From Mustelus asterias (taxonomy: Eukaryota), in contig NC_135818.1 of assembly GCF_964213995.1 (NCBI RefSeq), positions 78,306,001 through 78,370,000 on the forward strand: a stretch of 64,000 bases of DNA, in the 5' to 3' direction. The notes beneath the pieces were generated by a model. The model made no database searches and had not been told where the DNA came from. It saw nothing but the letters and a program-made list of their open reading frames with translations. The translations under genes and the position numbers were made by a program. Below, piece by piece: positions 21,077 to 59,632 of this stretch. How positions within the stretch are numbered: position 1 is the first letter of the stretch; each line of letters opens with the position of its first letter.

Positions 21077-21250
21077 CACAGTAAGAGTTTTAACAACACC
21101 AGGTTAAAGTCCAACAGGTTTATCTGGTAGCAAATACCATTAGCTTTCGGAGCGCTGCTCCTTGCTACCAAATAAACCTGTTGGACTTTAACCTGGTGTT
21201 GTTAAAACTCTTACTGTGTTCACCCCAGTCCAATGCCGGCATCTCCACAT
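21077..21250 (+). mobile_element. Short Penelope-like element with inverted 5' duplication
   Basis: Inverted arms 21077-21133 and 21162-21218; TSD ATGGT(T/C)GAGTGTT; 3' end CATCTCCACATC. Confidence 0.8.
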
Positions 21251-22910
21251 CATGGTCGAGTGTTGACAGATTTCACACTTTTTCCAAAAAGCGGTCATAG
21301 CAAAAGGCACACGGAAAATGTAATTCAAGTCATTAACACTCAAAAGCTCAAGTCTTGCTGCAGGCCCATTGATCATTTCACAAAGTTCATTCTCATTGTC
21401 CTGCTAGATACTATGTAGGTGTGGTGTGATGTGCTAATAATTGGAAGTTGGCTATTTTTAAACACACCAGACATAAACATTACCATTTGACATACACAAA
21501 TGAATGACTATGCACAACTACTGTCCCAATAAAGATAATTAGAGTTTTTATATTTGCCTGGATGAGTTTCAATTGCCTAAAAATTTGAAGAGGAACATGC
21601 TAATATTTTTCTTTCCCAAAATGGCCTGGGATCCTTTGTTTATTGCACTTCATGCAGGAAGTTATACATCTTAATATAGTCATCATGATTAAAGGAACAG
21701 GTGCATGGAACAGCACATTTCTTGTCCATCATTCTCCTTTACTTCCTGCACATGGACAGCTTCAGTTACCAAGGAGTCACAGATGGTGCTGCACGTTAAT
21801 GATTGCAGAAACATCCCTATTTCTGACCTTATGGAGGGATGGTCAAGGTTGAAGCAGCTTTAGAGATTTGGGCTCTAAACATTACCCTGAGGAGCTCCCA
21901 GTGATGTTCTTGGGCCGAGATGATTGGGCTCCAATAACCGTCTTCCCTTGTTCTAGGTTTTTCCCACAGATTCCCGTCAACCCTTTGAGTTTGTGAAGGC
22001 TCCTGGATACCATGCTGAAGAAGGGAAAGGGTTAATTTTTTTGTACTCAAAGTATTTTGTACCTAAAGGGTTAACGGATTTTGTACCTAGAATGTATCAC
22101 AAACATAACCCTTCATTGTGGCTAATCTCCCCAGGTTTATACTGCTCCTGGCATCAATATAAATTATTTATTCATGGTTTCATTCTTTCATTCGTGATCA
22201 AGGACTGTTAAATGGACTTTAATTCATGGCTGGTCTGGAGTTTGCTTCGTGACTGGTATTATGAGCCATGATATATAAATATCCACACTTCTTATGTTCA
22301 GTGAGAGATCTGGTGAACCGCTGTTAAGGTACCAGGTCTCTCCCAAAAACTTTTGAGAATAAAGCTCACTGTACTTTGACTTAGTAACTATCTCAGAGGT
22401 ATTATTTACCTACAACAATTTGGTGCCGAAACCTGGGAATTGTTTGCGGGCTCAGGTTGAATGGCCACAACCTGGGTACTGGAATAGAGTTCCGAACCTA
22501 ATAGGATGAGTCAAACTACAGTGGGTGATCATACGTGATGAGAGAGTGTGAGTGAAAGGAGTCTGAACTGAACACATACAGACAAGGAGGTGTTTGTTTC
22601 TTATACTCAGCCTTAGACCGAATGTTAAGAGGCCAGGATTTTGAAGTGGGTATAAAGACTGGAGAAAAGTTGCCTGAGGTGTGATGTTCAGACGTGAGTG
22701 AGAGAAAGACTATCTGAGTGATCACCGGAGTAGAAGCCGGCTTAATGATGTAAGCTTAATAGTGTAAGTTTAATAGTGTAAGCGGTGGTACGGAGGATTT
22801 GATCACCCCTGACAGGTAACACCGGACTCTGATAAGAGCGACCTAGGAGGGGAGAGCAAGAAGGGAGAATAGAAGACTCCAGGTGGTGCGTATAAAACCT
22901 TATCTGTATT

Positions 22911-32049: not shown

Positions 32050-33229
32050 TGTGGTCGAAGGGTCTTTTTCCGGCTGGAGGTCTGTGACCAGTGGTGTTAG
32101 CCTGAAGAAGGGGCTCAGAGCCTCGAAAGCTTGTGTGGCTTTTGCTACCAAATAAACCTGTTGGACTTTAACCTGGTGTTGTTAAACTTCTTACTGTGTT
32201 TACCCCAGTCCAACGCCGGCATCTCCACATCATGACCAGTGGTGTTCCACAGGGCTCTGTACTGGGACCTCTGCTATTTGTGATATATATAAATGATTTG
32301 GAAGAAGGTGTAACTGGTGTAATCAGCAAGTTTGCGGATGACACGAAGATGGCTGGACTTGCGGATAGCGAAGAGCATTGTCGGGCAATACAGCAGGATA
32401 TAGATAGGCTGGAAAATTGGGCGGAGAGGTGGCAGATGGAGTTTAATCCGAATAAATGCGAAGTGATGCATTTTGGAAGAAATAATGTAGGGAGGAGTTA
32501 TACAATAAATGGCAGAGTCATCAGGAGTATAGAAACACAGAGGGACCTAGGTGTGCAAGTCCACAAATCCTTGAAGGTGGCAACACAGGTGGAGAAGGTG
32601 GTGAAGAAGGCATATGGTATGCTTGCCTTTATAGGACGGGGTATAGAGTATAAAAGCTGGAGTCTGATGATGCAGCTGTACAGAACGCTGGTTAGGCCAC
32701 ATTTGGAGTACTGCGTCCAGTTCTGGTCACCGCACTACCAGAAGGACGTGGAGGCATTAGAGAGAGTGCAGAGAAGGTTTACCAGGATGTTGCCTGGTAT
32801 GGAGGGTCTTAGCTATGAGGAGAGATTGGGTAAACTGGAGTTGTTCTCCCTGGAAAGACGGAGAATGAGGGGAGATCTAATAGAGGTGTACAAGATTATG
32901 AAGGGGATAGATAGGGTGAACGGTAGGAAGCTTTTTCCCAGATCAGAAGTGACGTTCACGAGGGGTCACGGGCTGAAGGTGAGAGGGGCGAAGTATAACT
33001 CAGATATTAGAGGGATGTTTTTTACACAGAGGGTGGTGGGGGCCTGGAATGCGCTGCCAAGTAGGGTGGTGGAGGCAGGCACGCTGACATCGTTTAAGAC
33101 TTACCTGGATAGTCACATGAGCAGCCTGGGAATGGAGGGATACAAATGATTGGTTTAGTTGGACCAAGGAGCGGCACAGGCTTGGAGGGCCGAAGGGCCT
33201 GTTTCCTGTGCTGTACTGTTCTTTGTTCT
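32050..33229 (+). mobile_element. Young 5'-truncated CR1 LINE (RT C-terminal half) in NPC2-B intron 3
   Basis: GVPQGSVLGPLLF, KFADDTK; open frame 32233-33149; interrupted at 32099 by a Penelope-like element. Confidence 0.96.
32099..32232 (+). mobile_element. Short Penelope-like element with hammerhead core, inserted in CR1
   Basis: 14-bp TSD TGACCAGTGGTGTT (32085-32098 and 32233-32246); CTGAAGA-stem-GAAAGCT; AATAAA. Confidence 0.85.
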
Positions 33230-37133: not shown

Positions 37134-37587
37134 CTGCAATAGTAATGACCAGTTAATACCAATTATTTCAAGTTAGTTGCACAAATAAATTAACCAGACC
37201 TTGATGCTGTGAAAGGATAAACTGCACCTAGCTGTAAAAAAAATGAAAATTACCTAAAGCCACAAACTATCTATAGAATAAACTAGGTGTTTCAATTCAT
37301 TCTTCTCCTTCACCACACCACAGGTTTTCCTATTCTGAGATGATCAGCAACAAAACGCCTCATAAGACTCGCATAAGCTGCACAGCAAGCAGTTTCAAGA
37401 TTACACCAATAATAATGTTGGAAACTGTGGTTGAACCTTGTGAAACTGGAAGCATCGACAGTTTAACTGAAGTGTTGTTTACCATAGCCAGTTGCACAAA
37501 GACTTTACCAAAGTAACCCGCTAAAAGCTTTATACTGCTTTTTCAGATATACAAGAACCACTGGACTGCGTCAAGAAACAAAGTCAT

Positions 37588-37818
37588 GATGTGGAGATGC
37601 CGGTGTTGGACTGGGGTAAACACAGTAAGAAGTTTAACAACACCAGGTTAAAGTCCAACAGGTTTATTTGGTAGCAAAAGCCACACAAGCTTTCGGAGCT
37701 GCAAGCCCCTTCTTCAGGCGAGTGGGAATTCTGTTCACAAACAGAGCATATAAAGACACAAACTGAATTTACATGAATAATGGTTGGAATGCGAATACTT
37801 ACAACTAATCAAGTCTTT
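37588..37818 (-). mobile_element. Penelope-like pseudo-LTR fragment with hammerhead motif
   Basis: 15-bp TSD AAGAAACAAAG(T/C)CAT; the - strand reads CCACTCGC-CTGAAGA-AGGGGCTTGCAGCTCC-GAAAGCTT-GTG. A further copy is at about 42278-42396. Confidence 0.82.
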
Positions 37819-40800
37819 AAGAAACAAAGCCATCAACTTATGGGATGGAAGGCTGCCACTACGTAGATCCTTAATATGGTTTTAATCGTTTGACAATAGA
37901 GATCATTTAGACTGGATCAACACTGTTAACAGTTCTGAGCAGAAGTGACTGGTAACAAATGCAAACATGAAAACTCAAAGTTCATTTACAAATCAGAGAT
38001 GTGATGTTTCAAGAAAGTTAATTAAAACTACCTTGGATAAGATAGGGAAAGATGACATTAAAACCAGTTTTTGACTGTTAATGACAGAAAACATGTGAAT
38101 GCTTTAGATGCTTGTGGAGGTCAATGTCAAGATGGGTTTTAACTCCATTGGATAATATATTACAGAAGTCAGTGTAACATCCTGCCTGCAGTCAGGCAGT
38201 GGTAATTTGACCAAACAACTCAAAAGACCCACAAACAACAGGCGCGGATCATCTGTTGGCTGTGCGCGTGGTTCCCTCTTGTAACATCATTGATGGACTG
38301 CTTATAGCGTTGTGTGGCATAAATCTCAAGTAAAAAGAATCATAAATCTGTAAATTCCAGGAGAGAGGACTTATTGTACTGGACACTCACTAAATCCTCA
38401 ATTCCACCTCGAAAAGAATTCTACATCAGCCTGGAAGAACCAGGAAAAATAAAGGTGCTGATTCATTCATCCCAGATTCTCTTGCAAACAGGTCAGTCAA
38501 AAAGAAGTTGTCCTTAGCCCGAGGGAGTGAGATAAATCTACTAGCTTCAGTAACGTAACAGCAATAATTGCAAAATATATGCACTATTTGGAAAGCAGCA
38601 AATTGCATAACAATATTTCCTTACTTTTATGGTTAAGTGGACTGTGCAGTTATTAGATCAAAGCATAATAGAATTGCAATTTTACTGTGATTTAAAACAA
38701 CACCATTAGTTTATAAATATTGATTATGGAGAAGCAGGAAGGGATCTCGCTGATTCACTTTCAAGGTCAGAATGTTTTTATTATTTCTTGGGATGTGGAA
38801 ACAAGATTGGAATGGGCCAAGTGTTCAAAAACACGAAAAAGATGATCAACTCAAAATTATCCCGAAAAACAAAGCTGAGAATCCTAGAATGCTTCATCAT
38901 ACCAATTTTAACTTGTATAAAATGGCACTGGATGATCAGTAAAGTAACACAGAGAAGAATTGAGACTAGAGATTTGCTTTTTTGAACATGTCACACCAAA
39001 TCTAATGTTGAAAGAACTCTGCTGGTCAAGATCAGGAATAAACAGTGGAATTTCTCGGGTGCATAATAAGAACGGAGAGCATGCTTCACCAGCATCCTTT
39101 ATGGAAATACACCAGCTGTTCTTATTTGGGCGTGCCTGGATGTAACTCCAACTCTCCGGCCAACTGCAAACTCAGGTGGTTGACTCTTAACTGCCAATTG
39201 AAATGGTCTAGCAGGCTAAACAAGTGTTACCAATGCCCATTATCAAGAAGCAAGCAGACCAATCAAGGTGATTGGGGATGAGCAGTGATCACTGGCCAGC
39301 AGCACCCACATACTATAAATTTTAAAAATAATGGCATCAATATTCAAAGAGCACATTCATGTACACTTTAATAATCAGAATTCAAAAAGCAGAATTGGGT
39401 AGATTTTGCTTTAAAATCTTTGTGCTATTTTTGCTCAGTTCTTGCCAAAACTGTGTAACATCGAAGAAAATACTGGACTTCAATACCACAGAGGGAAACT
39501 CTCAGCTAGGCCAACTGGAATAACTCCACTAGGTCAACAGAAAACAACAAACCTATAGTGAAAAGGGAAACAATATCCAACGACTCAGTCAACATTCTCA
39601 GCAACAATTTGCAGAAGTTCCACGATTACCGGACAGAGACCAAGAAGCTACTCGGTGTCTGACAAATTCATGGCAGAATTTCAAACTTCTGCAGTGCACA
39701 AAGTTCAGCACTGGATGGTGGTAGATTTTTGATAAGTAAATATACATGTGAAACACAATTGTATTGTGCAAAGCATTTCAAATCACGTAGCTAAAACAAT
39801 GCTACCGCAGTCTCGTCTGAAACTAGTCAAGTGATTTCTATTGGACACCACGGATCTGCAGGAGGAACGGAAAATAAATTCCTGCAGCTCTCTCTTCATG
39901 GAGAACAACAGAAACGTAGAGTGGAAAAGAAACGGGATGACCCCAATTTGCCGATAAGGTGAAAAGGGGCTACGCAAAATGGTGGAGGGCAAAATAGTTA
40001 AAACGTTAATAAGTAATTCTACAATCTTACATGGACAGCAGACTTTATAGCACTTTGAGTGCCAAATGGTGTGAAAAGCACCATCAAAACGTGTGCCACG
40101 TGTGAAAATTAAGGGCACCTTGATTGATAGGTCAATGGAGGGTGAGCTGTAATAATTGCAATCCCCAGGAGTTTGGCTGATGATCTTCAAGGAACCACCT
40201 TAATTTATTTTTGTCTCACTTGGGAGATTCTCTAGACAGCATAGAGAGGCAAATGCACTTTTAGAACTCAAATTCACCTCAAGATGGGTGGCTTTTTAAA
40301 AAATTAGTGTGGACCATACTGCCCATAAGAAAATATGACATTCAATACACTTTACTCCATAGATGTCATGGACTAGAAAACTTTCTGTAGAGAAAAATGG
40401 GAAGAGAAACAAGGAAGAGAAACTAGAACAATGCTATAAAAAGATTTTGATTTTACTTGCATGGTTTAGCATGCCTTTGTGGCCCTTGGAGATTTTGCAC
40501 AATACATTTCAGCAAACACAAAGTCTCTGTTATAACCTCGCTCTGTTCAAGTTTGTTTCCTGTATTATACCAACACCACGTTATACGTTAACACATTAAA
40601 CCAACACCAACATGAAGCACTTTTTAAATGACACAAGCATCTAAAAGAACTAAAAGTTAATTGTTTCCAAGCAAGTTCACTACTTGTTTGGCAAGTGAGG
40701 CAGCCAATTCTTCACACAACGTGATAAACAAAATACTGGAAATCTATTTCCAGCTTTTCTGTTTTGTTTTCACTCGGCAGTTCAGACAGTATCTGTTGAT

Positions 40801-41336: not shown

Positions 41337-42752
41337 CATGCTAAGGGATAGAAGTTAATGCTAAGGGATAGAATTGAAAAGCAGAGATGCCCTGTTAAAT
41401 ATATAGAACTTGGTTGTGTACAGTTCAGAATGCCATATTACATAAATGATAGAGGCACTAGGGAGTGGGTGCAAAATTAATTTACAATCATTTACAATGA
41501 TTATACCAGAATGATGCAGAAAGGATGAACGGGCTGCGTCTTTGAGTAGAAAACTCAAGAGTGACCCAATTGAAAGATGTCCTAAATAGACTATACACAC
41601 AGAATGTTTCCACTAGCATTAAAGATTTAAAGACAGTCAATGTTAGATAACTAAGTAATTAAACAGGGGAGTCAAAACAAACCCCTTTACCCAGAATGTG
41701 GGACTCATTATCACAGGGAGAGGTTGGGGCAAATTGTCTAGATTTAAGAGCAAGTTAGAAAAGCATGAGAGAGAAGGGACAAGACAATTACACTAATAAA
41801 AGTCAGGTAGAGAGGTGCATGAACAGAGAATGTCAGGCCAAGACACTGAAATGTCTGTCCCAGTGCTACAAATTCTCATGGATTTATTTTAACAGCAGTC
41901 TCTTGTTTCCCAGAGATTTAAAAAAAATACTTGCAGCAAATAGGCAAGCTATAATTTAAAATGTCGGCAGTTAGATGGAGCTCAATAATTCCCTATATTT
42001 CCAAATGTTCAGCGGTTTATTCACACAGGTCAGCTGAGGAGGCTTGGCACTCAGCAGTCTGACTAAGAACACTTCAGTTGGGGCGCTGCCACCCAAGAAA
42101 CACTTTGCGAGTCTTTCAAGAACCCACACGCTATTGAAAAAAAACAATTCCCAGCATGGGCGCACACACACAATAATAATGAATGGGCACTTGATCTAAC
42201 CAGTGTACGTGAACGAGTCAGATGATCAGACCACACTCACATTCCAACAGAATTAGCCAAGTCAGTCTGCAGAAATGATGTAGAGATGCTGGCGTTGGAC
42301 TGGGCATGGTAAAAAATTTCACAACTTCAGGTTAAAGTCAGACAGTTTTATATTTGAAATCACGAGCTTTTGCAGCGCTGCTCCTTCATCAGGTGATTGG
42401 AGAAAGCTGAGGAGGAAGATAATTAGGTGCCTTATCAACCCAGTTTTGGGGCTCACACCTCAGGGGGCATCAAGTTGTTTTAAAGGTAAGGGGAACTGAT
42501 CCACTTCAGATCAGCCATGATCTTATTGAATGGCGGGGCAGGCTCGAGGGGCTGGATGGCCTACTCCTGCTCCTATTTCTTATGTTCTTAAAAAAAAACA
42601 CACAGCAACTTGGGAGAAATGCGATTTTGTTTGGCAGAAAGTTGTGTGAACTCAGTGACAGGTTAGTGAAGTTTAATCCCCGATGTAAACTATATAAAAC
42701 ATCAATCTACCCGCACCCAATCCAATTCCCCCAGTCCAATCCATTCACTCAC

Positions 42753-52555: not shown

Positions 52556-53154
52556 CAGTAACTGTCAATACCCAGTTACCTGTGGGAGAGCCAGGTCAGT
52601 GCCCTCTAAATGGGTCCTCATGTTAGTAAGGGACAAGCGCACATCATTAGGCCGCCTGAAATCTGCATCAGGACTAAAGTGACTGAAGAACACCTTGGCA
52701 GTTCATACTGAGTTGTCCTTTGATGTTCTGACTTCCATTCAGGCTTTTCTGAAAATGAGTACTGTTGAAGATATTGCAAACTCTCCTAGTTCCAGACAAC
52801 GTGGAATATAGCTGTGCTTGTCGTGTTTCTGTTATATTTTGAACTTTAGTTGCTGCTTTACAACTTTCTGACTGTTACAGACTTGATCTGGTTCTTTGTA
52901 CACTGCAAGTTGACTGTGTGCATGAACATTTCAATCCCCTAAAAATGTTAAGAACGTTAAAGTTTTCTTTCCCTTTCCATAAGTCACTCTGCACCTTTGT
53001 TCTGCCATTCACACATTCCAATCTCTTAATGGGTGCTCTTAGCGCCTTTCTTAGCCTTTATCGTCACCATGAGGGGCATAGATAAGGTGAATAAGCCAAG
53101 GTCTTTTCCCCAGTCTAGGGGAGGCCAAAGCTAAAGAGCATAGGTTTAACAGCT

Positions 53155-53455
53155 AGGAGGTGGTATAGTGGTTAGCACTGCTGCCTCACAGCTCAAGGGA
53201 TCCGGGTTCGATTGCCAGCTTGGGTCACTGTCTGTGCGGAGTCTGCACGTTCTCCCTGTGTCTGTGTGGATTTCCTTCGGGTGCTCCGGTTTCCTCCCAC
53301 AGTCCGAAAGACTTGCTGGTTAGATGCATTGGCTGTGCTAAATTCTCCCTCAGTGTACACAAACTGGCAACAAAGTGTGGTGACTAGGAGATTGTCACAA
53401 TAACTTCATTGCAGTATTAATGCAAGCCTTCTTGTGACACTAATAAATAAACTTT
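53155..53455 (+). mobile_element. tRNA-derived SINE with an HE1-like head and a different tail
   Basis: A/B boxes and HE1-like core; tail GTGACACTAATAAATAAACTTT. Confidence 0.8.
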
Positions 53456-54520
53456 AAGAACATAAGAAATAGGAGCAGGAGTAGGCCATCTAGCCTCTCG
53501 AGCCTGCCCCGCCATTCAATAAGATCATGGCTGATCTGAAGTGGATCAGTTCCACTTACCCGCCTGATCCCTATAACCCCTAATTCCCTTACTGATCAGG
53601 AATCCATCTATCCGTGATTTAAACATATTCAATGAGGTAACCTCCACTACTTCAGTGGGCAGAGAATTCCAGAGATTCACCACCCTCTGAGAGAAAAAGT
53701 TCCTCCTCAACTCTGTCCAAAACTGAACCCCCTTTATTTTGAGGCTGTGCCCTCTAGTTCTAGCTTCCTTTCTAAGTGGAAAGAATCTCTCCACCTCTAC
53801 CCTATCCAGCCCCTTCATTATCTTATAGATCTCTATAAGATCCCCCCTCAACCTTCTAAATTCCAACGAGTACAAACCCAATCTGCTCAGTCTCTCCTCA
53901 TAATCAACACCTCTCATCTCTGGTATCAACCTGGTGAACCTTCTCTGCACTCCCTCCAAGGCCAATATATCCTTCCGCAAATAAGGGGACCAATACTGCA
54001 CACAGTATTCCAGCTGCGGCCTCACCAATGCCCTGTACAGATGCAGCAAGACATCTCTGCTTTTATATTCTATCCCCTTGCGATATAGGCCAACATCCCA
54101 TTTGCCTTCTTGATCACCTGTTGCACCTGCAGACTGGGTTTTTGCGTCTCATGTACAAGGACCCCCAGGTCCCTTTGCACAGTAGCATGTTGTAATTTTT
54201 TTTCCATTTAGATAATAATCCAATTTGCTATTATTTCTTCCAAAGTGAATAACCTCGCATTTGTCAACGTTATACTCCATCTGCCAGATCCTCGCCCACT
54301 CACTCAGCCTGTCCAAATCTCTCTGCAGACCTTCTACGCCCTCCACACGATTCACTTTTCCACTTATCTTTGTGTCGTCTGCAAACTTTGTTACCCTACA
54401 CTCAGTCCCCATCTCCAGATCGTCTATATAAATGGTAAATAGTTGAGGCCCCAGTACTAATCCCTGCGGCACACCACCAGTTACCATTTGCCAACCAGAA
54501 AAGCACCCATTTATTCCGAA
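53456..54520 (-). mobile_element. CR1 LINE RT/3' fragment
   Basis: GVPQGLVLGPQLF, KFADDTK, RPQLEYCVQYWSP; one frameshift in a poly-T run; TTCTTATG tail. Confidence 0.95.
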
Positions 54521-55311
54521 ATTCAAAACTAATCTGTGAAAATATTAATTCAATGAGTGGTCACTCTATGGAACAGACTCATTAGGGAAATGGTGGAAGC
54601 AAAGTTTTGAGTAAAATTCGATTGATTTCTTTCAGGAAATAATATTTTAGGATGCAATGCGTGAGTAATTTGAGACCCACCTCCAAGGCCAAGATATCTT
54701 TCCTGAGGTGTGTTGCCCAGAACAGAGTAATCAAAATGGGTTCAAGCAAGAGCTCTGTACATACCAAACCCTTTGTATTCTAGCTGCCTTGAGATAAAGG
54801 TTAACATTTAAGTAGTCTTAGTAATTATTTCTTGTAACTCTCCATGAGCTTGTCGTGATTTCTACATTTGCATCCCCAAAAACTCTTTTATACATAGTTT
54901 TTAGCTTCTCAACTTTTAGAAAATATTCTTATCCATCTTAGGTCCAAAATGACAAAGTGGGGAGTTGTCAAGGAAGACTGCAACCCAGAAACAGTGTGTA
55001 AAACTACTCGTGAATAATTAATACTTTCAATTCAAATGTTGACTTCTAGTTTTTGCAGATGCCATTTGGCAGTAAACAGAGAACAGATGCCTGAGCTTGA
55101 TAAGAATTCAAAGTCTTCTGTGCTAGGTCCCAAACCTTCAAACTGCAGCTAACAATCAATGACTTACCAGGAGTTATATTTACTTTAGTATTCTGTTACA
55201 AAACCTATTCACCATCAGATACTTGCTGCAATCCCACAGCCACAGAATCAGGTGTCACTAGGTAATGAGGATAAATCATTGGCTTCTGATAGGGGAATCT
55301 TAGTGTTGGGG

Positions 55312-55655
55312 AAGTGGTGGTGTAATGGTACTATCACTGGACTAGTAATCCAGAGACCCAGGATAATGCCCTGGAGATCCAGGTTCAAATCCCATCACTG
55401 CAGAAGATAAAATTTGAATTCAATCAAAATCTGGAATCAAAAGTCTAATGATGACCATTAAATTATTGTCAATTGTTGCAAAAACCCATCCAGTTCACTA
55501 ATGTCCTTTAGGGGAGGAAATTTGCTATTGTTCCCTGATCTGGTCTACATGCGACTCCAGATCCACAGCAATATGGTTGACTCTTAAACATCACCTCAAT
55601 TAGGGATGGGCAATAAATGCTGGCCCAGCCAATGACGCCCACATCTCATGAACAA
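55312..55655 (+). mobile_element. Ancient tRNA-derived SINE (SacSINE1-like); other copies at about 62355-62692 (-), 62010-62290 (+), 48450-49030 (-, split by an HE1) and 16135-17735 (-, split by the solo LTR)
   Basis: GGTTCAAATCCC B box and a shared core ACTAATGTCCTTTAGGG...GACTCCAGA.CCACAGCAA..TGGTTGACTCTTAA. The family name is from recall. Confidence 0.7.
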
Positions 55656-55699
55656 ATATAAAAATTATATCTGCGTCGAGTCCTTCATTTGGAGCAACG

Positions 55700-57310
55700 A
55701 GTGGATGCTCAAACATTCAGATAAAGTAAGAAGGTGTGCAAAAGACTACAGTCATAGGTTACAAAAAAGTAGATTTTGAGGGGCTGAGACCAGAACTTGG
55801 GAAAATAAACTTGGGCAACAACATTGCATTATTGTTTGCCAGTGGAAAACATTTAAACAGCATTGAACAGGATCCAGTAGCAATATATGTGCTAAAAAAC
55901 AAGAACAAACTAATGAGACATCATGAATGAATAAAGACATGAGGGAGGGTGAGGAAAGGGACATACACTAAATACATGAACAGGGGAGAGCAAGAAAAGG
56001 GAGAACATAGATTACAAGTAAAGACAAAAACATGATGCAGAAGGCAAAGAGGAACAGTGAAATCAAATTATCAAAGGACAATCAACAATAGTCAAAATTT
56101 AACAAGCATAAATAAGAAAAGAAATTCAAATTGGGAAGAGAGTTGTTAAGGAACAGATAGGAGAAAAATCAGACAAATACCAAAACAGTAGGAATATTAA
56201 ATAATTATTTTTCTTCATTATTTAACAGGAAGATGGATTGAATCTATATGAAATTGGAAATTATATAACCATATTTAAAATAAGAAACATTAGAAAATGT
56301 TAAAATTCTGGTTTGGAAAATTTGCATTCCCACATTCTAAAATAAAGAGATAGCACAGCCACAATTACAGATATTTAATAATTTATTAGAGAAAGCTGTA
56401 ATGAGAGAAGAACAGCAGATAGCCAATGTTTATAGTTATATTTAAGAAGTGAGGTAAATATGTCCAGGGAACTTCAAACTAGTCAGTTTGACATCGGTAC
56501 TGGAAAAATAATAGAATCCCTAGAAATTAAAAACATTATAATGAATAGTCAACATGGATTTCAAAAGGATAAGTCTTGTTTGATCACCCTCCCGGAATAT
56601 TTTCAGAGGTAAGAGAGATAGTAGGCAAGAGTCATGAAAAGATGCCGCAAATAACTAACGAGTGAGGTCACAGCATATGGAGTCAATGGACAAGTAGCAG
56701 AATGGATAACTGGCTGGAAGTCAAAGCAGAGAACAGACGTAAAGGTAGCTGTTCAGAGTGGCCATAGGTGGAAATGATTAGTGCTGAGACCATTATTGTT
56801 GATAATTTATATTAATGATTTAGACTTTGGAATCAAAAACACAATTTTTAAATTGTGAGGGATAGTCAACAGAGAAGGACTGCAATAAATTATAAGATGA
56901 CTTTAATAAACTTGCAGAATAAGCATTTAAGTATAATTGAATTTCAGAGTTAAATGTGAGGTATGACATTTTGATAAGAAAAATGTGTTGATGTTACATG
57001 AAAAATAAGAAGCTAAATGGGGTGCAGGAGCAAAGAGGTCTGGGAGAACAAACACAAATTAGAAGTTGTGACCCAGGCCTATAACAAACACAAATCACAC
57101 ATTAGAGTTTATTTCCAGAGGGATAGAATTGAAAGATAGAATGTTAATGCTAAATTATCAAACCTGGGTATAGACCATACCTAGAGTCATGCATACAGTT
57201 CCTGTCAGCATATTTTAAAAAAATTATGTAGAGCATTAAAGAGGGTGCAACGATTTATAAGGATATCTGAACTGTGAGATTATATTAATTTGGAAAGATT
57301 GAATAGACTA
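55700..57310 (+). mobile_element. Old, highly decayed CR1 ORF2
   Basis: Remnants equivalent to NYRPVSLTS, SQHGF and INDLD, with many stops. Confidence 0.7.
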
Positions 57311-58050
57311 AGAACAAAGAAAATTACAGCACAGGAACAGGCCCTTCGGCCCTCCAAGCCTGCACCAACTATGCTGCCCAACTGAACTAAAACCCCCTAT
57401 CCTTCCGGGTACCATATCCCTCTATTCTCATCCTATTCATGTATTTGTCCAGACGCCCCTTAAAACTCACTATCGTATCTGCTTCCATTACCTCTCCCGG
57501 CAGTGAGTTCCAGGCACCTACCTCCCTCGGAGTAAAAAGCTTGCCTCGCACGTCTCCTTTAAACCTTGCCCCTCGCACCTTAAACCTATGCCCCCTAGTA
57601 ATTGACTCTTCCACCCTGAGAAAAAGCTTCTGACTATCCACTCTGTCCATGCCCCTCCCAATCTTGTAGACTTCTATCAGGTCGCCCCTCAACCTCCATC
57701 GTTCCAGTGAGAACAAACCAAGTTTCTTCTACCTCTCCTAATAGCTAATGCCCTCCATACCAGGTAAATCTTTTCTGTACCCTCTCCAAAGCCTCCACAT
57801 CTTTCTGGTAGCGTGGCGACCAGAATTGAACACTATATTCCAAGTGCGACCTAACTAAGGTTCTATAAAGCTGCAACATGACTTGCCAATTTTTAATCTC
57901 AATGCTCTGGCCGATGAAGGCAAGCATGCCGTATGCCTTCTTGACTACTTTCTCCACCTGCGTTGTCACTTTCAGTGACCTGTGTATCTGTACACCCAGA
58001 TCTCCCTGTCTATCAATACTCTTAAGGGTTCTGCCATTTACTGTATATTA
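57311..58050 (-). mobile_element. CR1 LINE 3' fragment (same subfamily as 15290-15755)
   Basis: VKKAYGMLAFI, HLEYSVQFWSP, RLRGDL. Confidence 0.93.
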
Positions 58051-58056
58051 TACTAG

Positions 58057-58713
58057 GGCTGGGATTCTCCCAAAATAAAACTAAGTGCCAAATGGGCTGG
58101 AAAACGGGAGTGTTTCCTGCCGTTTTTTGGGCGTACTTACCGCAATGAATCTCCAATCTGAGCAATGCAGAGTGCCATAGCACGATACACTCTGAAAAGT
58201 GGTGGGCGGGGGCTATTCTGGCCAAGAGGCCGGCAGCATAGTTCTGAGGACACCTGTTCACCGTTAGTGGGGAACAGTTGTAAACCCTGCTGGTGGGAAT
58301 CATGATGTGGAGATGCAGGCGTTGGACTGGGGTAAACACAGTAAGATGTCTCACAACACCAGGCCAAAGTCCAACAGGCCTACCCGGCAGCAAAAGCCAC
58401 TAGCCCTCGGAGCACCGCTCCTTCACCAGCAGCGCTCCGAAAGCTAGTGGCTTCTGCCACCAAACAAACCTGCCGGACCTCAACCTGGTGTTGTGAGACC
58501 TCTTACTGTGGGAGTCACTCCTAGTTTTGGGGAGGCGGGGTGAGGCTAGCAGGCCCAGAGATTATAGATTTCCAGCACGGAGCTGATTGCGCTTAAAAAA
58601 AAGAGCAGCGATTGAGAGACTTGTGATTGGGAATCTCACAAAATGCCTCCCGCTGTTGTCTCCCAGCCCACTGCTCTGCTTAAGCAGCACAGAAGGCCAG
58701 GAGAATCTCGGCC
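58057..58713. mobile_element. Harbinger-like MITE
   Basis: Terminal inverted repeats GGCTGGGATTCTCC and GGAGAATCTCGGCC flanked by CTAG; hosts the edited Penelope-like copy. Confidence 0.65.
58301..58510 (-). mobile_element. Penelope-like hairpin element, A-to-G hypermutated
   Basis: Inverted arms about 58337-58418 and 58428-58510; TSD GTGGGA(A/G)TCA; about 20 T-to-C (+ strand) differences from sister copies. Confidence 0.85.
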
Positions 58714-58729
58714 TAGGATTCTTTCCTTT

Positions 58730-59632
58730 GGTTTGATTGATTGGATAGAGAAAAAGTGAAGTTCACTCCAGAAAAGTGAGAGGCAATGCGTTTTGGGAGG
58801 GCAAACAAAGCAAGGGAATACTCAATAAACGGGAAGGTGTTGAGGGGTTGAGGAAATGAGACACCTTGGAGTGCATGCCCACAGGTCCTTGAAGGTGGAC
58901 AAGGTGGTCATAAGCATACGGAATACTATCCTTTATTTGATGAGCTACTGAATACAATAGCGGGAATGTAATGATGGAAATGTATGAAACACTTGTTAGG
59001 CCACAAATGGACTTTTGTGCACAGTTCCATTTACCACATTACAGGGAGAGCATAACTGCTGCAGAGTGTGCACAGAGAAAATTTACAAAAATGTTGTCAG
59101 GGCTTGAAAATTGCAGTTATGAGGAAAGATTGGACAGGCTAGGGTTGTTTTTCTTTGTAAGAAGTTTAACAACACCAGGCCAAAGTCCAACAGGTCTACC
59201 TGGCAGCAAAAGCCACACAAGCCCCCGAGGCGCCAAGCCCCCTCCTCAGGAATTACTCCTCCCCCTCCTCCTTTAAACTTCATCATCATCATCATGAGGG
59301 ATATAGAAAGGTGAATAGCCAAGGTCTTCCCCAGAGTAGGGGAGTGCAAAACTAAGGGCATAAGGTGAGAGGGGAAAGATTTAAAAGGGACCCGAGGGGC
59401 AACTTTTTCACATACAAGGTGGTATGTATATGGAATGAGTTGCTGGAGGAGGTGGTAGAGACGGGTAGAATTATAAATTTAAAATACATTTGGACAGGGT
59501 ACGGCTGGGAAGGGTTTAGAGGGATTTGGGCCAAATGTAGCCAAATAGGACCGGTTCAGTTTTGGAAACCTGGTCAGCATGGACGAGTTGGGCCAAAGGG
59601 TCTTTTTCTGTGTTGTATATCTCTATGACTCT
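58730..59632 (+). mobile_element. Decayed CR1 3' fragments
   Basis: LVRPQMDFCAQF, SYEERLDRLGLF and a CTCTATGA tail. Confidence 0.8.
59157..59250 (-). mobile_element. Penelope-like fragment, A-to-G hypermutated
   Basis: Aligns to 37625-37718 with about 11 T-to-C (+ strand) changes. Confidence 0.8.

Follow-up and report, generated by a model that had tools for sequence, protein, structure and literature searches.

Does the hairpin of Penelope-like sequence at 58301-58510 of the window record RNA editing that was written back into DNA, and if so, by which route did the edited RNA return to the chromosome? The window (the whole stretch of DNA analysed here, 64 kb, C18:78306001-78370000) belongs to a genome of 3.68 Gb, and LINE fragments and SINEs are abundant in it; the character of these repeats suggests a cartilaginous fish. 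A sequence-only reading had described about 20 T-to-C changes in the hairpin and few other differences, and had explained them by a fold-back transcript that was hyper-edited by ADAR, reverse-transcribed and inserted with a target-site duplication (TSD).

Results

The window copy and its unedited parent

A genome search with 58290-58525 returned, besides the window itself, one match with the same flanks, at C6:43258422, which carries T at every site flagged earlier. From this match, 58301-58510 differs by 19 T>C changes and in nothing else, in agreement with the earlier description. The similarity extends well beyond the hairpin: window 53442-59250 and C6:43253586-43259383 are 98.8% identical over 5810 nt, and the unique part of the duplicate was found in two copies, the window and C6, among the 40 best candidates scored. 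The 5797 aligned columns contain 56 substitutions, 36 of which read T in the donor and C in the window. Thirty-one of these 36 lie in the arms described below, and the other 25 substitutions amount to a background divergence of 0.43%.

C6 is the parent, since a second Penelope-like element is whole there, with a TSD on both sides, whereas the window copy breaks inside it. By alignment to the donor, 53455..59250 is an unspliced, 5'-truncated retrocopy of G000:C6:43253598-43259383, with the RNA sense on the minus strand. The two sequences are colinear, with only three small indels, the largest of 11 nt; the template was therefore an unspliced RNA and the copy is not a classical processed pseudogene, the alignment to the donor showing none of the intron loss that marks one. 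At the left end, 53455..54560 (minus strand) is a 3' fragment of what we take, from tail and ORF sequence, to be a CR1-type LINE; it resembles other repeat copies in the window and ends in a short tandem-repeat tail. The donor alignment starts in these tail repeats, which form the 3' end of the copied RNA. Because this end lies in a minus-strand CR1 tail, the template RNA was of the minus strand, and T>C in the window means A>G in the RNA. Three marks of a LINE-made retrocopy are present, namely a 3' end at a LINE tail, a 5' truncation and a donor elsewhere.

The target site is the 3' tail of a presumed SINE at 53150..53454 (plus strand). A 7-nt unit of this tail is found again at 59274-59280, behind 23 nt of filler (59251-59273), and may be either a short TSD or the plain continuation of the SINE tail, two readings that look alike in the sequence; beyond this 7-nt repeat, no clear TSD was found at the focal insertion. 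Two LINE fragments that are 82% similar, at 53065-53142 and 59290-59370, flank the SINE together with the insertion and suggest an older local duplication. On the donor side, a 1001-aa open frame with endonuclease and reverse-transcriptase domains, a nearly intact LINE ORF2, lies just 3' of the CR1 tail on the opposite strand (L032 86-3088, G000:C6:43250085-43253087).

A second CR1-type fragment at 57304..58049 (minus strand) travelled as a passenger and is essentially unedited: it shows four T/C differences, three of which are donor-side C>T when compared with 11-16 other repeat copies. Light editing of the CR1 piece 57299-57767 (four T/C differences), together with position 54462, was considered and rejected, as other copies of the repeats show that in four of these five T differences, which are those found outside the arms, the donor changed from C to T. 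A search for an inverted partner of 57299-57767 found none. In assembled reads from four sequencing runs the repeats swamped the arms; the unique parts in X1 mix donor-type and window-type alleles, and low-depth contigs of X5 carry window-type alleles at four sites of the unique parts.

Two stems carry the changes

The hairpin, read on the minus strand, comprises an unpaired 3' tail (58301..58336), a 3' arm in the sense of the Penelope-like pLTR (58337..58419) and a 5' inverted arm (58428..58510). Eleven of the 20 Ts of the 3' arm are changed to C (58364, 58365, 58379, 58380, 58383-58385, 58388, 58405, 58406 and 58416), as are 8 of the 26 Ts of the inverted arm (58454, 58458, 58465, 58473, 58474, 58479, 58481 and 58500), whereas none of the 45 As of the two arms is changed. 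Both arms were thus edited on the same strand, as had been claimed. The tail, which lies outside the long stem in the fold, has 0/8 Ts changed and the loop 0/2, while 18 of the 19 T>C sites are paired in the predicted donor fold, so that the confinement of the changes to the paired part also holds. The minus-strand AATAAA and GAAA motifs are present in the donor 3' arm and lost in the copy, as the earlier reading had proposed for AATAAA and the hammerhead GAAA.

A second edited arm had been missed, as had the fact that both stems sit inside one 5.8-kb duplicate. At 59157..59250 (minus strand), the last 94 nt of the 268-nt arm of the other Penelope-like element carry 12 A>G changes in RNA sense (12 of 22 Ts, against 0 of 30 As). 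The second element has the opposite orientation to the hairpin in the donor, and yet it is edited on the same strand. Its partner arm, C6:43259823-43260090, is 98.9% complementary and absent from the copy, and the 94 nt are fully paired in the predicted fold of the donor. Because this arm is edited although its partner exists in the donor only, the editing took place on RNA before reverse transcription. Hammerhead self-cleavage was considered as the origin of the 5' end at 59250 and rejected on the known geometry of hammerhead cleavage, since the 59250 junction falls upstream of the core, and editing has removed the GAAA.

When the three arms are pooled, T>C is found at 31 of 68 Ts (46%) and none of the 75 As is changed, against 5 of 1492 Ts in the rest of the duplicate (Fisher p 8e-41 for T>C in the arms versus the rest; p 9e-13 for T>C versus A>G within the arms). 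The base 5' of the edited A in the RNA matters: 19 of 27 As are edited after A, 8 of 16 after U, 3 of 14 after C and 1 of 11 after G (U/A versus C/G, p 0.0003). In the hairpin itself, 0 of 7 As with a 5' G are edited, which upholds the earlier remark that Ts followed by C are spared. ADAR prefers a 5' neighbour in the order U>A>C>G and saturates at 40-50% in duplexes over 50 bp (PMC11019741). The focal changes are likewise on one strand, the RNA strand set independently by the CR1 tail; they are confined to duplex, and they affect about 46% of the As.

The hairpin is a passenger

A 10-bp TSD bounds the hairpin (left copy 58293..58302, right copy 58508-58517, with one mismatch), but it is identical in C6. 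As TSD and flanks alike are found in the unedited donor, the hairpin travelled as a passenger inside a longer CR1-tailed RNA, and the proposal that it was inserted in edited form with its own TSD does not stand. Insertion of its own edited transcript by a Penelope-like reverse transcriptase, with a fresh TSD, would agree with the position of the hairpin tail at the RNA 3' side, and the TSD-bounded edited hairpins L093, L083 and L112 indicate that some members of the class may have followed such a route. For the focal copy it is refuted by the flanks that the edited copy has in common with the donor along with the TSD (4.8 kb on the 3' side and 0.7 kb on the 5' side), and by the second, oppositely oriented element edited on the same strand; we consider it extremely unlikely here.

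The element family

The hairpin is, by its sequence features, a member of a very large Penelope-like family with a layout as in Neptune/Nematis: an exact-match count gave 138,798 copies of a 35-nt pLTR core genome-wide. At locus L134, the end of a 414-aa ORF with a weak match to RVT_1 (E 1.5e-5, under the cut-off) and, identified by eye, a Zn-finger-like Cx4CxxC linker and YIG/HH (GIY-YIG-like) residues, is followed by the same pLTR. Since the pLTR lies downstream of this RT/GIY-YIG-like ORF, the sense strand of the element is the strand with AATAAA. A putative hammerhead CUGA..GAAA core was recognised by eye in L134 and in the second donor element, while CUGA is missing from the donor hairpin; an Rfam scan of the 64-kb window gave nothing at gathering score. 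Neptune/Nematis elements, as described in PMC8557442, have a pLTR with a hammerhead core and AATAAA after an RT and GIY-YIG-like ORF, and occur as truncated, 5'-inverted copies of which one end bears a tail of 30-40 nt. The pLTR layout, the 5'-inverted truncated copy and the tail are the same here; the difference is that the element served as substrate only, and its own enzyme did not make the focal copy. Four more pLTR copies of the family, all unedited, lie in the window at 21077-21254, 32101-32234, 37576-37828 and 42275-42392.

Edited copies elsewhere in the genome

We searched the genome with the 35-nt core, forcing an adjacent doublet of one transition type per pattern while any other base of the same type could vary. 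At least two further changes of the same type were present in 21/32 T>C and 28/32 A>G matches, against 0/35 for C>T and 0/41 for G>A, where the control patterns had 5-6 free positions versus 8 in the T>C and A>G patterns. Clusters thus occur in 49 of 64 A>G/T>C pattern matches and in 0 of 76 C>T/G>A matches, and clustered G>A of APOBEC type on the sense strand is absent from these doublets. A script counted 30 T>C, 30 A>G, 12 C>T and 12 G>A matches, and the remainder come from match lists. A third search pattern added 41 matches.

Seventy-eight T>C/A>G loci were fetched and 68 scored against their best unedited copy, leaving out 4 duplicates or focal arms and 6 loci whose best reference is itself edited. 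An arm was called edited when it had at least 8 changes, at least twice the other transitions. Forty-five arms passed, with 822 A>G, 72 C>T, 66 T>C and 35 G>A changes outside the core, and they represent 37 distinct elements after removal of 8 more redundant rows. The same filter, applied by hand to 24 control loci, lets one pass (L144, whose reference is partly edited). Where two arms could be compared (n=24, hand tally), 17 loci are edited in both arms on the same strand, 4 mainly in one arm and 3 mirror-symmetrically. As the search patterns catch a minority of edited copies (the first doublet, for instance, is present in 3 of 16 daughters of the C5 source described below), we roughly put the genome total at a few hundred edited arms, about 0.1-0.2% of the family.

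Several loci deserve mention in their own right. L052 (G000:C4:147014305), which when used as a reference shows about 60 changes over 900 nt of its element body, is a very long edited tract that further edited arms adjoin. The edited loci L118, L119 and L123 have 1.15 kb of CR1 3' flank in common at 91-97%, and possibly constitute a third source family. At L063/L064 (G000:C16:47404091, 47409854) an edited arm lies in a DNA-level tandem duplicate, 99.7% identical over 1.2 kb. L085/L086 (G000:C7:2335960-2336141) form a large palindrome of an edited antisense arm, in which mirror-identical edits lie on either side of a short spacer that is not pLTR; an edited copy was probably duplicated here in a second round.

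One source, seventeen daughters

Six edited matches have a flank in common, and a search with this flank led to 22 loci: an unedited source on C5 with its segmental twin, 3 copies that stop short of the arm, and 17 daughters, all of which were aligned. In the source, a Penelope-like element whose inverted arms are 245 nt long is joined to 750 nt of other sequence and to a CR1 fragment that ends in its tail; the source lies in a segmental duplicate (L157/L159, G000:C5:108293413, 108207121; spacing 86 kb, identity 99.85% over 10 kb). The 22 loci make up a small composite non-autonomous family in which a 4-nt indel separates two groups.

In the 17 daughters, A>G is found at 454/832 positions (55%) in the 3' arm and 141/310 (45%) in the 5' arm, against 10/457 in the loop, 6/595 upstream, 47/3716 in the 3' flank and 10/2439 in the CR1 part; T>C in the arms amounts to 22/1291, against 595 A>G. 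Sixteen of the 17 are edited, the exception spanning 4 As, and among daughters with at least 12 arm As the figure is 16 of 16. Pairs of daughters differ at 6-20 of some 55 arm As, versus 3-33 of 800 flank bases; because the differences at arm As exceed those in the flanks, each daughter was edited separately, although some sites are edited in nearly all of them. The flanks have diverged by up to 4%, which identifies the daughters as inherited germline insertions.

All daughters with sequence reaching the 3' end stop at the CR1 tail, whereas their 5' truncation points vary. In 3 of 8 daughters tested, joining the two target flanks restores a single repeat that the insertion had interrupted (gaps of -1 to +6 nt). 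Ten of the 17 daughter 5' ends fall in the 3' arm, and 12 ends lie in 4329 nt of stem against 4 in 4069 nt of unpaired sequence (one-sided p 0.05), which hints at stalling of the enzyme, or cleavage of the RNA, within the edited stem.

Neighbour preferences and the candidate enzyme

The 5' preference is U/A > C > G in all three sets (focal arms, 45 arms, C5 daughters), and in two of them the rate after A is no lower than that after U. The rates in the 45-arm set are 0.62 for U, 0.56 for A, 0.34 for C and 0.29 for G; over the two larger sets 5' G gives 0.29-0.34 versus 0.56-0.69 for U/A, so that the avoidance of G is weaker there than in the focal copy. The 3'-G preference of mammals is absent from our sets, in which the 3' rates run from 0.40 to 0.62 and A is highest in the two larger ones. 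Depletion of 5' G and, in amphibians and invertebrates, a 3' A preference have been described (PMC5625713). We infer from this signature that ADAR was the editing enzyme. The genome holds 32 exon-level matches to PF02137, the ADAR-type deaminase domain (ADAR, ADAT or ADAD), at several loci.

How far the CR1 route extends

Among the 37 edited elements a CR1 piece lies 3' in the RNA sense in 11 and in antisense in 2 (p 0.022), against 2:2 in controls, while 24 have no CR1 piece of at least 200 nt within 1.5 kb 3'. The element tail of edited hairpins is found at either RNA end (about 11 versus 6, by eye), as would be the case for passengers. Two hairpins, L093 and L083, have their own TSD of 12-14 bp and both arms edited on one strand; for neither did the best 40 candidates scored include a second copy of the flanks. 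Owing to these two loci and to the 24 elements without a CR1 piece, the CR1 route may not hold for all edited copies, and for some copies with a TSD of their own, insertion may have been the work of the Penelope-like enzyme. At L112 1440-1615 (G000:C7:50451597), a TSD-bounded hairpin, the edits in the two arms are mirror-identical, which means that the template of the inverted arm had been edited before it was copied. Taken with L093 and L083, this locus indicates that the Penelope-like enzyme probably copies edited templates too, and the pattern suggests that it sometimes builds the inverted arm afterwards. The earlier statement that the inverted structure was already present in the RNA template is hence true of the focal hairpin, where it was already in the donor DNA, but it says nothing on how Penelope-like inversions arise.

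Discussion

The focal copy is very probably the product of germline ADAR hyper-editing of an unspliced read-through RNA, fixed by CR1 LINE reverse transcription, as far as assembled sequence can tell. Minus-strand transcription of the donor would have crossed two Penelope-like elements, each with inverted arms, and reached the 3' end of the CR1 fragment. Both elements would fold into long, nearly perfect duplexes, in which ADAR would deaminate about half of the As. A CR1 ORF2 protein would then recognise the tail, prime at the SINE tail on C18 and copy inosine as G, until reverse transcription stopped 94 nt into the second stem, and from then on the edits would be inherited as ordinary DNA. 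The C5 family would have followed the same route. The central claim of the sequence-only reading, a fold-back RNA hyper-edited by ADAR and then reverse-transcribed, is in this way strongly supported by the unedited parent and by the replicates.

Could the changes have arisen without RNA editing? The edited bases were read from assembled sequence, and systematic clustered errors have entered references before, in the form of a G-to-A motif in Sanger traces (PMC2873906), so that a sequencing or assembly artefact at DNA hairpins has to be considered. The identical C6 hairpin and the 138,798 cores are nevertheless unaffected, the window lacks a partner for the arm at 59157-59250, and the strand of the changes follows the CR1 tail in 16 daughters with flank divergence of 0.4-4%, with the 5'-neighbour bias in addition, all of which makes an artefact very improbable. 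A duplication of DNA followed by a DNA-level process, whether GC-biased gene conversion or adenine deamination in a cruciform or RNA:DNA hybrid, would account for the direction of all changes from A/T to G/C and for the unspliced state of the copy, and ADARs do edit DNA in hybrids in vitro (PMC12925331). But gene conversion is strand-symmetric and brings transversions, against 31 T>C and no A>G here; no cruciform is possible at a solo arm, hybrid editing is not limited to intramolecular stems, and LINE-tail ends with variable 5' truncation are marks of retroposition. We therefore hold a DNA-level origin to be very unlikely.

The location of the changes in stems that need unwinding, where truncations seem to cluster too, could also be put down to the infidelity of a reverse transcriptase that inserts C opposite A on a structured template, with no part for ADAR. 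Such an origin is hardly to be expected, as changes at about 50% of the As, of one substitution type, in both arms, with neighbour bias and saturation, fit the biochemistry of ADAR, and reverse-transcriptase error rates are orders of magnitude lower. There remains the idea of a C-rich subfamily descended from one mutated master, or of a reversed polarity in which C became T in the donor. That nearly all C5 daughters share some edited sites and that L063/L064 are DNA-level twins might speak for it; yet T is the state of 138,798 cores and allows perfect pairing of the donor arms, the edited copies span several pLTR variants, and siblings diverge at arm As 5- to 50-fold more than they do in their flanks. 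This idea is largely refuted, and we attach practically no probability to it.

Editing of RNA followed by LINE-mediated copying thus stands as the preferred reading, and it has precedents in part. Chimeric RNAs are retroposed by LINEs in trans, leaving a LINE 3' tail, a variable 5' truncation, little or no TSD and many daughters per source; what differs here is that the passenger carries the marks of RNA editing. ADAR-type A-to-G hypermutation of avian retroviral RNA has been found to become fixed in the DNA of proviruses (Hajjar and Linial 1995; Felder et al. 1994, cited in PMC12925331). The likeness is close, since nearly 50% of the As of an inverted repeat became G and were carried into DNA (PMC12925331), but those cases arose in infection or culture, whereas here we deal with inherited non-LTR retrocopies of the host, an unedited parent and independent replicates. 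LTR retrotransposons edited G-to-A by APOBEC are known from vertebrate genomes (PMC4866542; PMC2873906). Such fossils resemble ours in their clustered, strand-biased deaminase marks, which come to light when a copy is set against its unedited source, and differ in that they record cytidine deamination of cDNA, read as G>A, and are not tied to inverted repeats. In the main set of the APOBEC screen, only alignments dominated by G-to-A were retained, and A-to-G served as background. At the RNA level, palindromic or inverted repeats are the main targets of hyper-editing across animals, with Penelope RNA heavily edited in lizard and brain RNA hyper-edited in elephant shark (PMC5625713); the available part of that account describes no write-back into the genome. 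Our literature search, of partial coverage, brought up no paper in which non-LTR retrocopies edited by ADAR are described as fixed in the genome of a vertebrate.

The suggestion that ADAR inactivates these elements heritably finds no support. The 210-bp hairpin is too short to encode the protein of the element, and the CUGA part of its hammerhead core is absent from the donor already. The destroyed motifs lay in passengers that are immobile by themselves. Nor did editing stop insertion, 16 of the 17 C5 daughters being edited. We tentatively raise a different and wider reading, doubtful as it may be in its full extent: the hundreds of retrocopies may form a dated archive of germline ADAR activity at the level of single molecules, in which the LINE-copied RNAs of a source with a long perfect stem were nearly all saturated before copying, editing would license retroposition by loosening stems that stall the reverse transcriptase, and ADAR would act as a structure-targeted germline mutagen.

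RNA editing is normally lost with the RNA, and here parent and edited daughter stand in one vertebrate genome. Such parent-daughter pairs, together with the replicates, make the non-LTR write-back of A-to-I editing into heritable DNA countable. Genomes alone can then be used to test whether the germline RNAs that LINEs use undergo editing before they are copied, which sites germline ADAR preferred in the past, and whether dsRNA or inosine causes 5' truncation. The edits are strand-specific bar codes, by which one can also test when Penelope-like elements form their inverted arm. Two pitfalls follow for repeat and editing studies: edited copies resemble diverged subfamilies, and copies missing from a reference can mimic or mask calls of RNA editing. 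If the licensing reading is true, the site preferences of ADAR would be readable through time from DNA alone.
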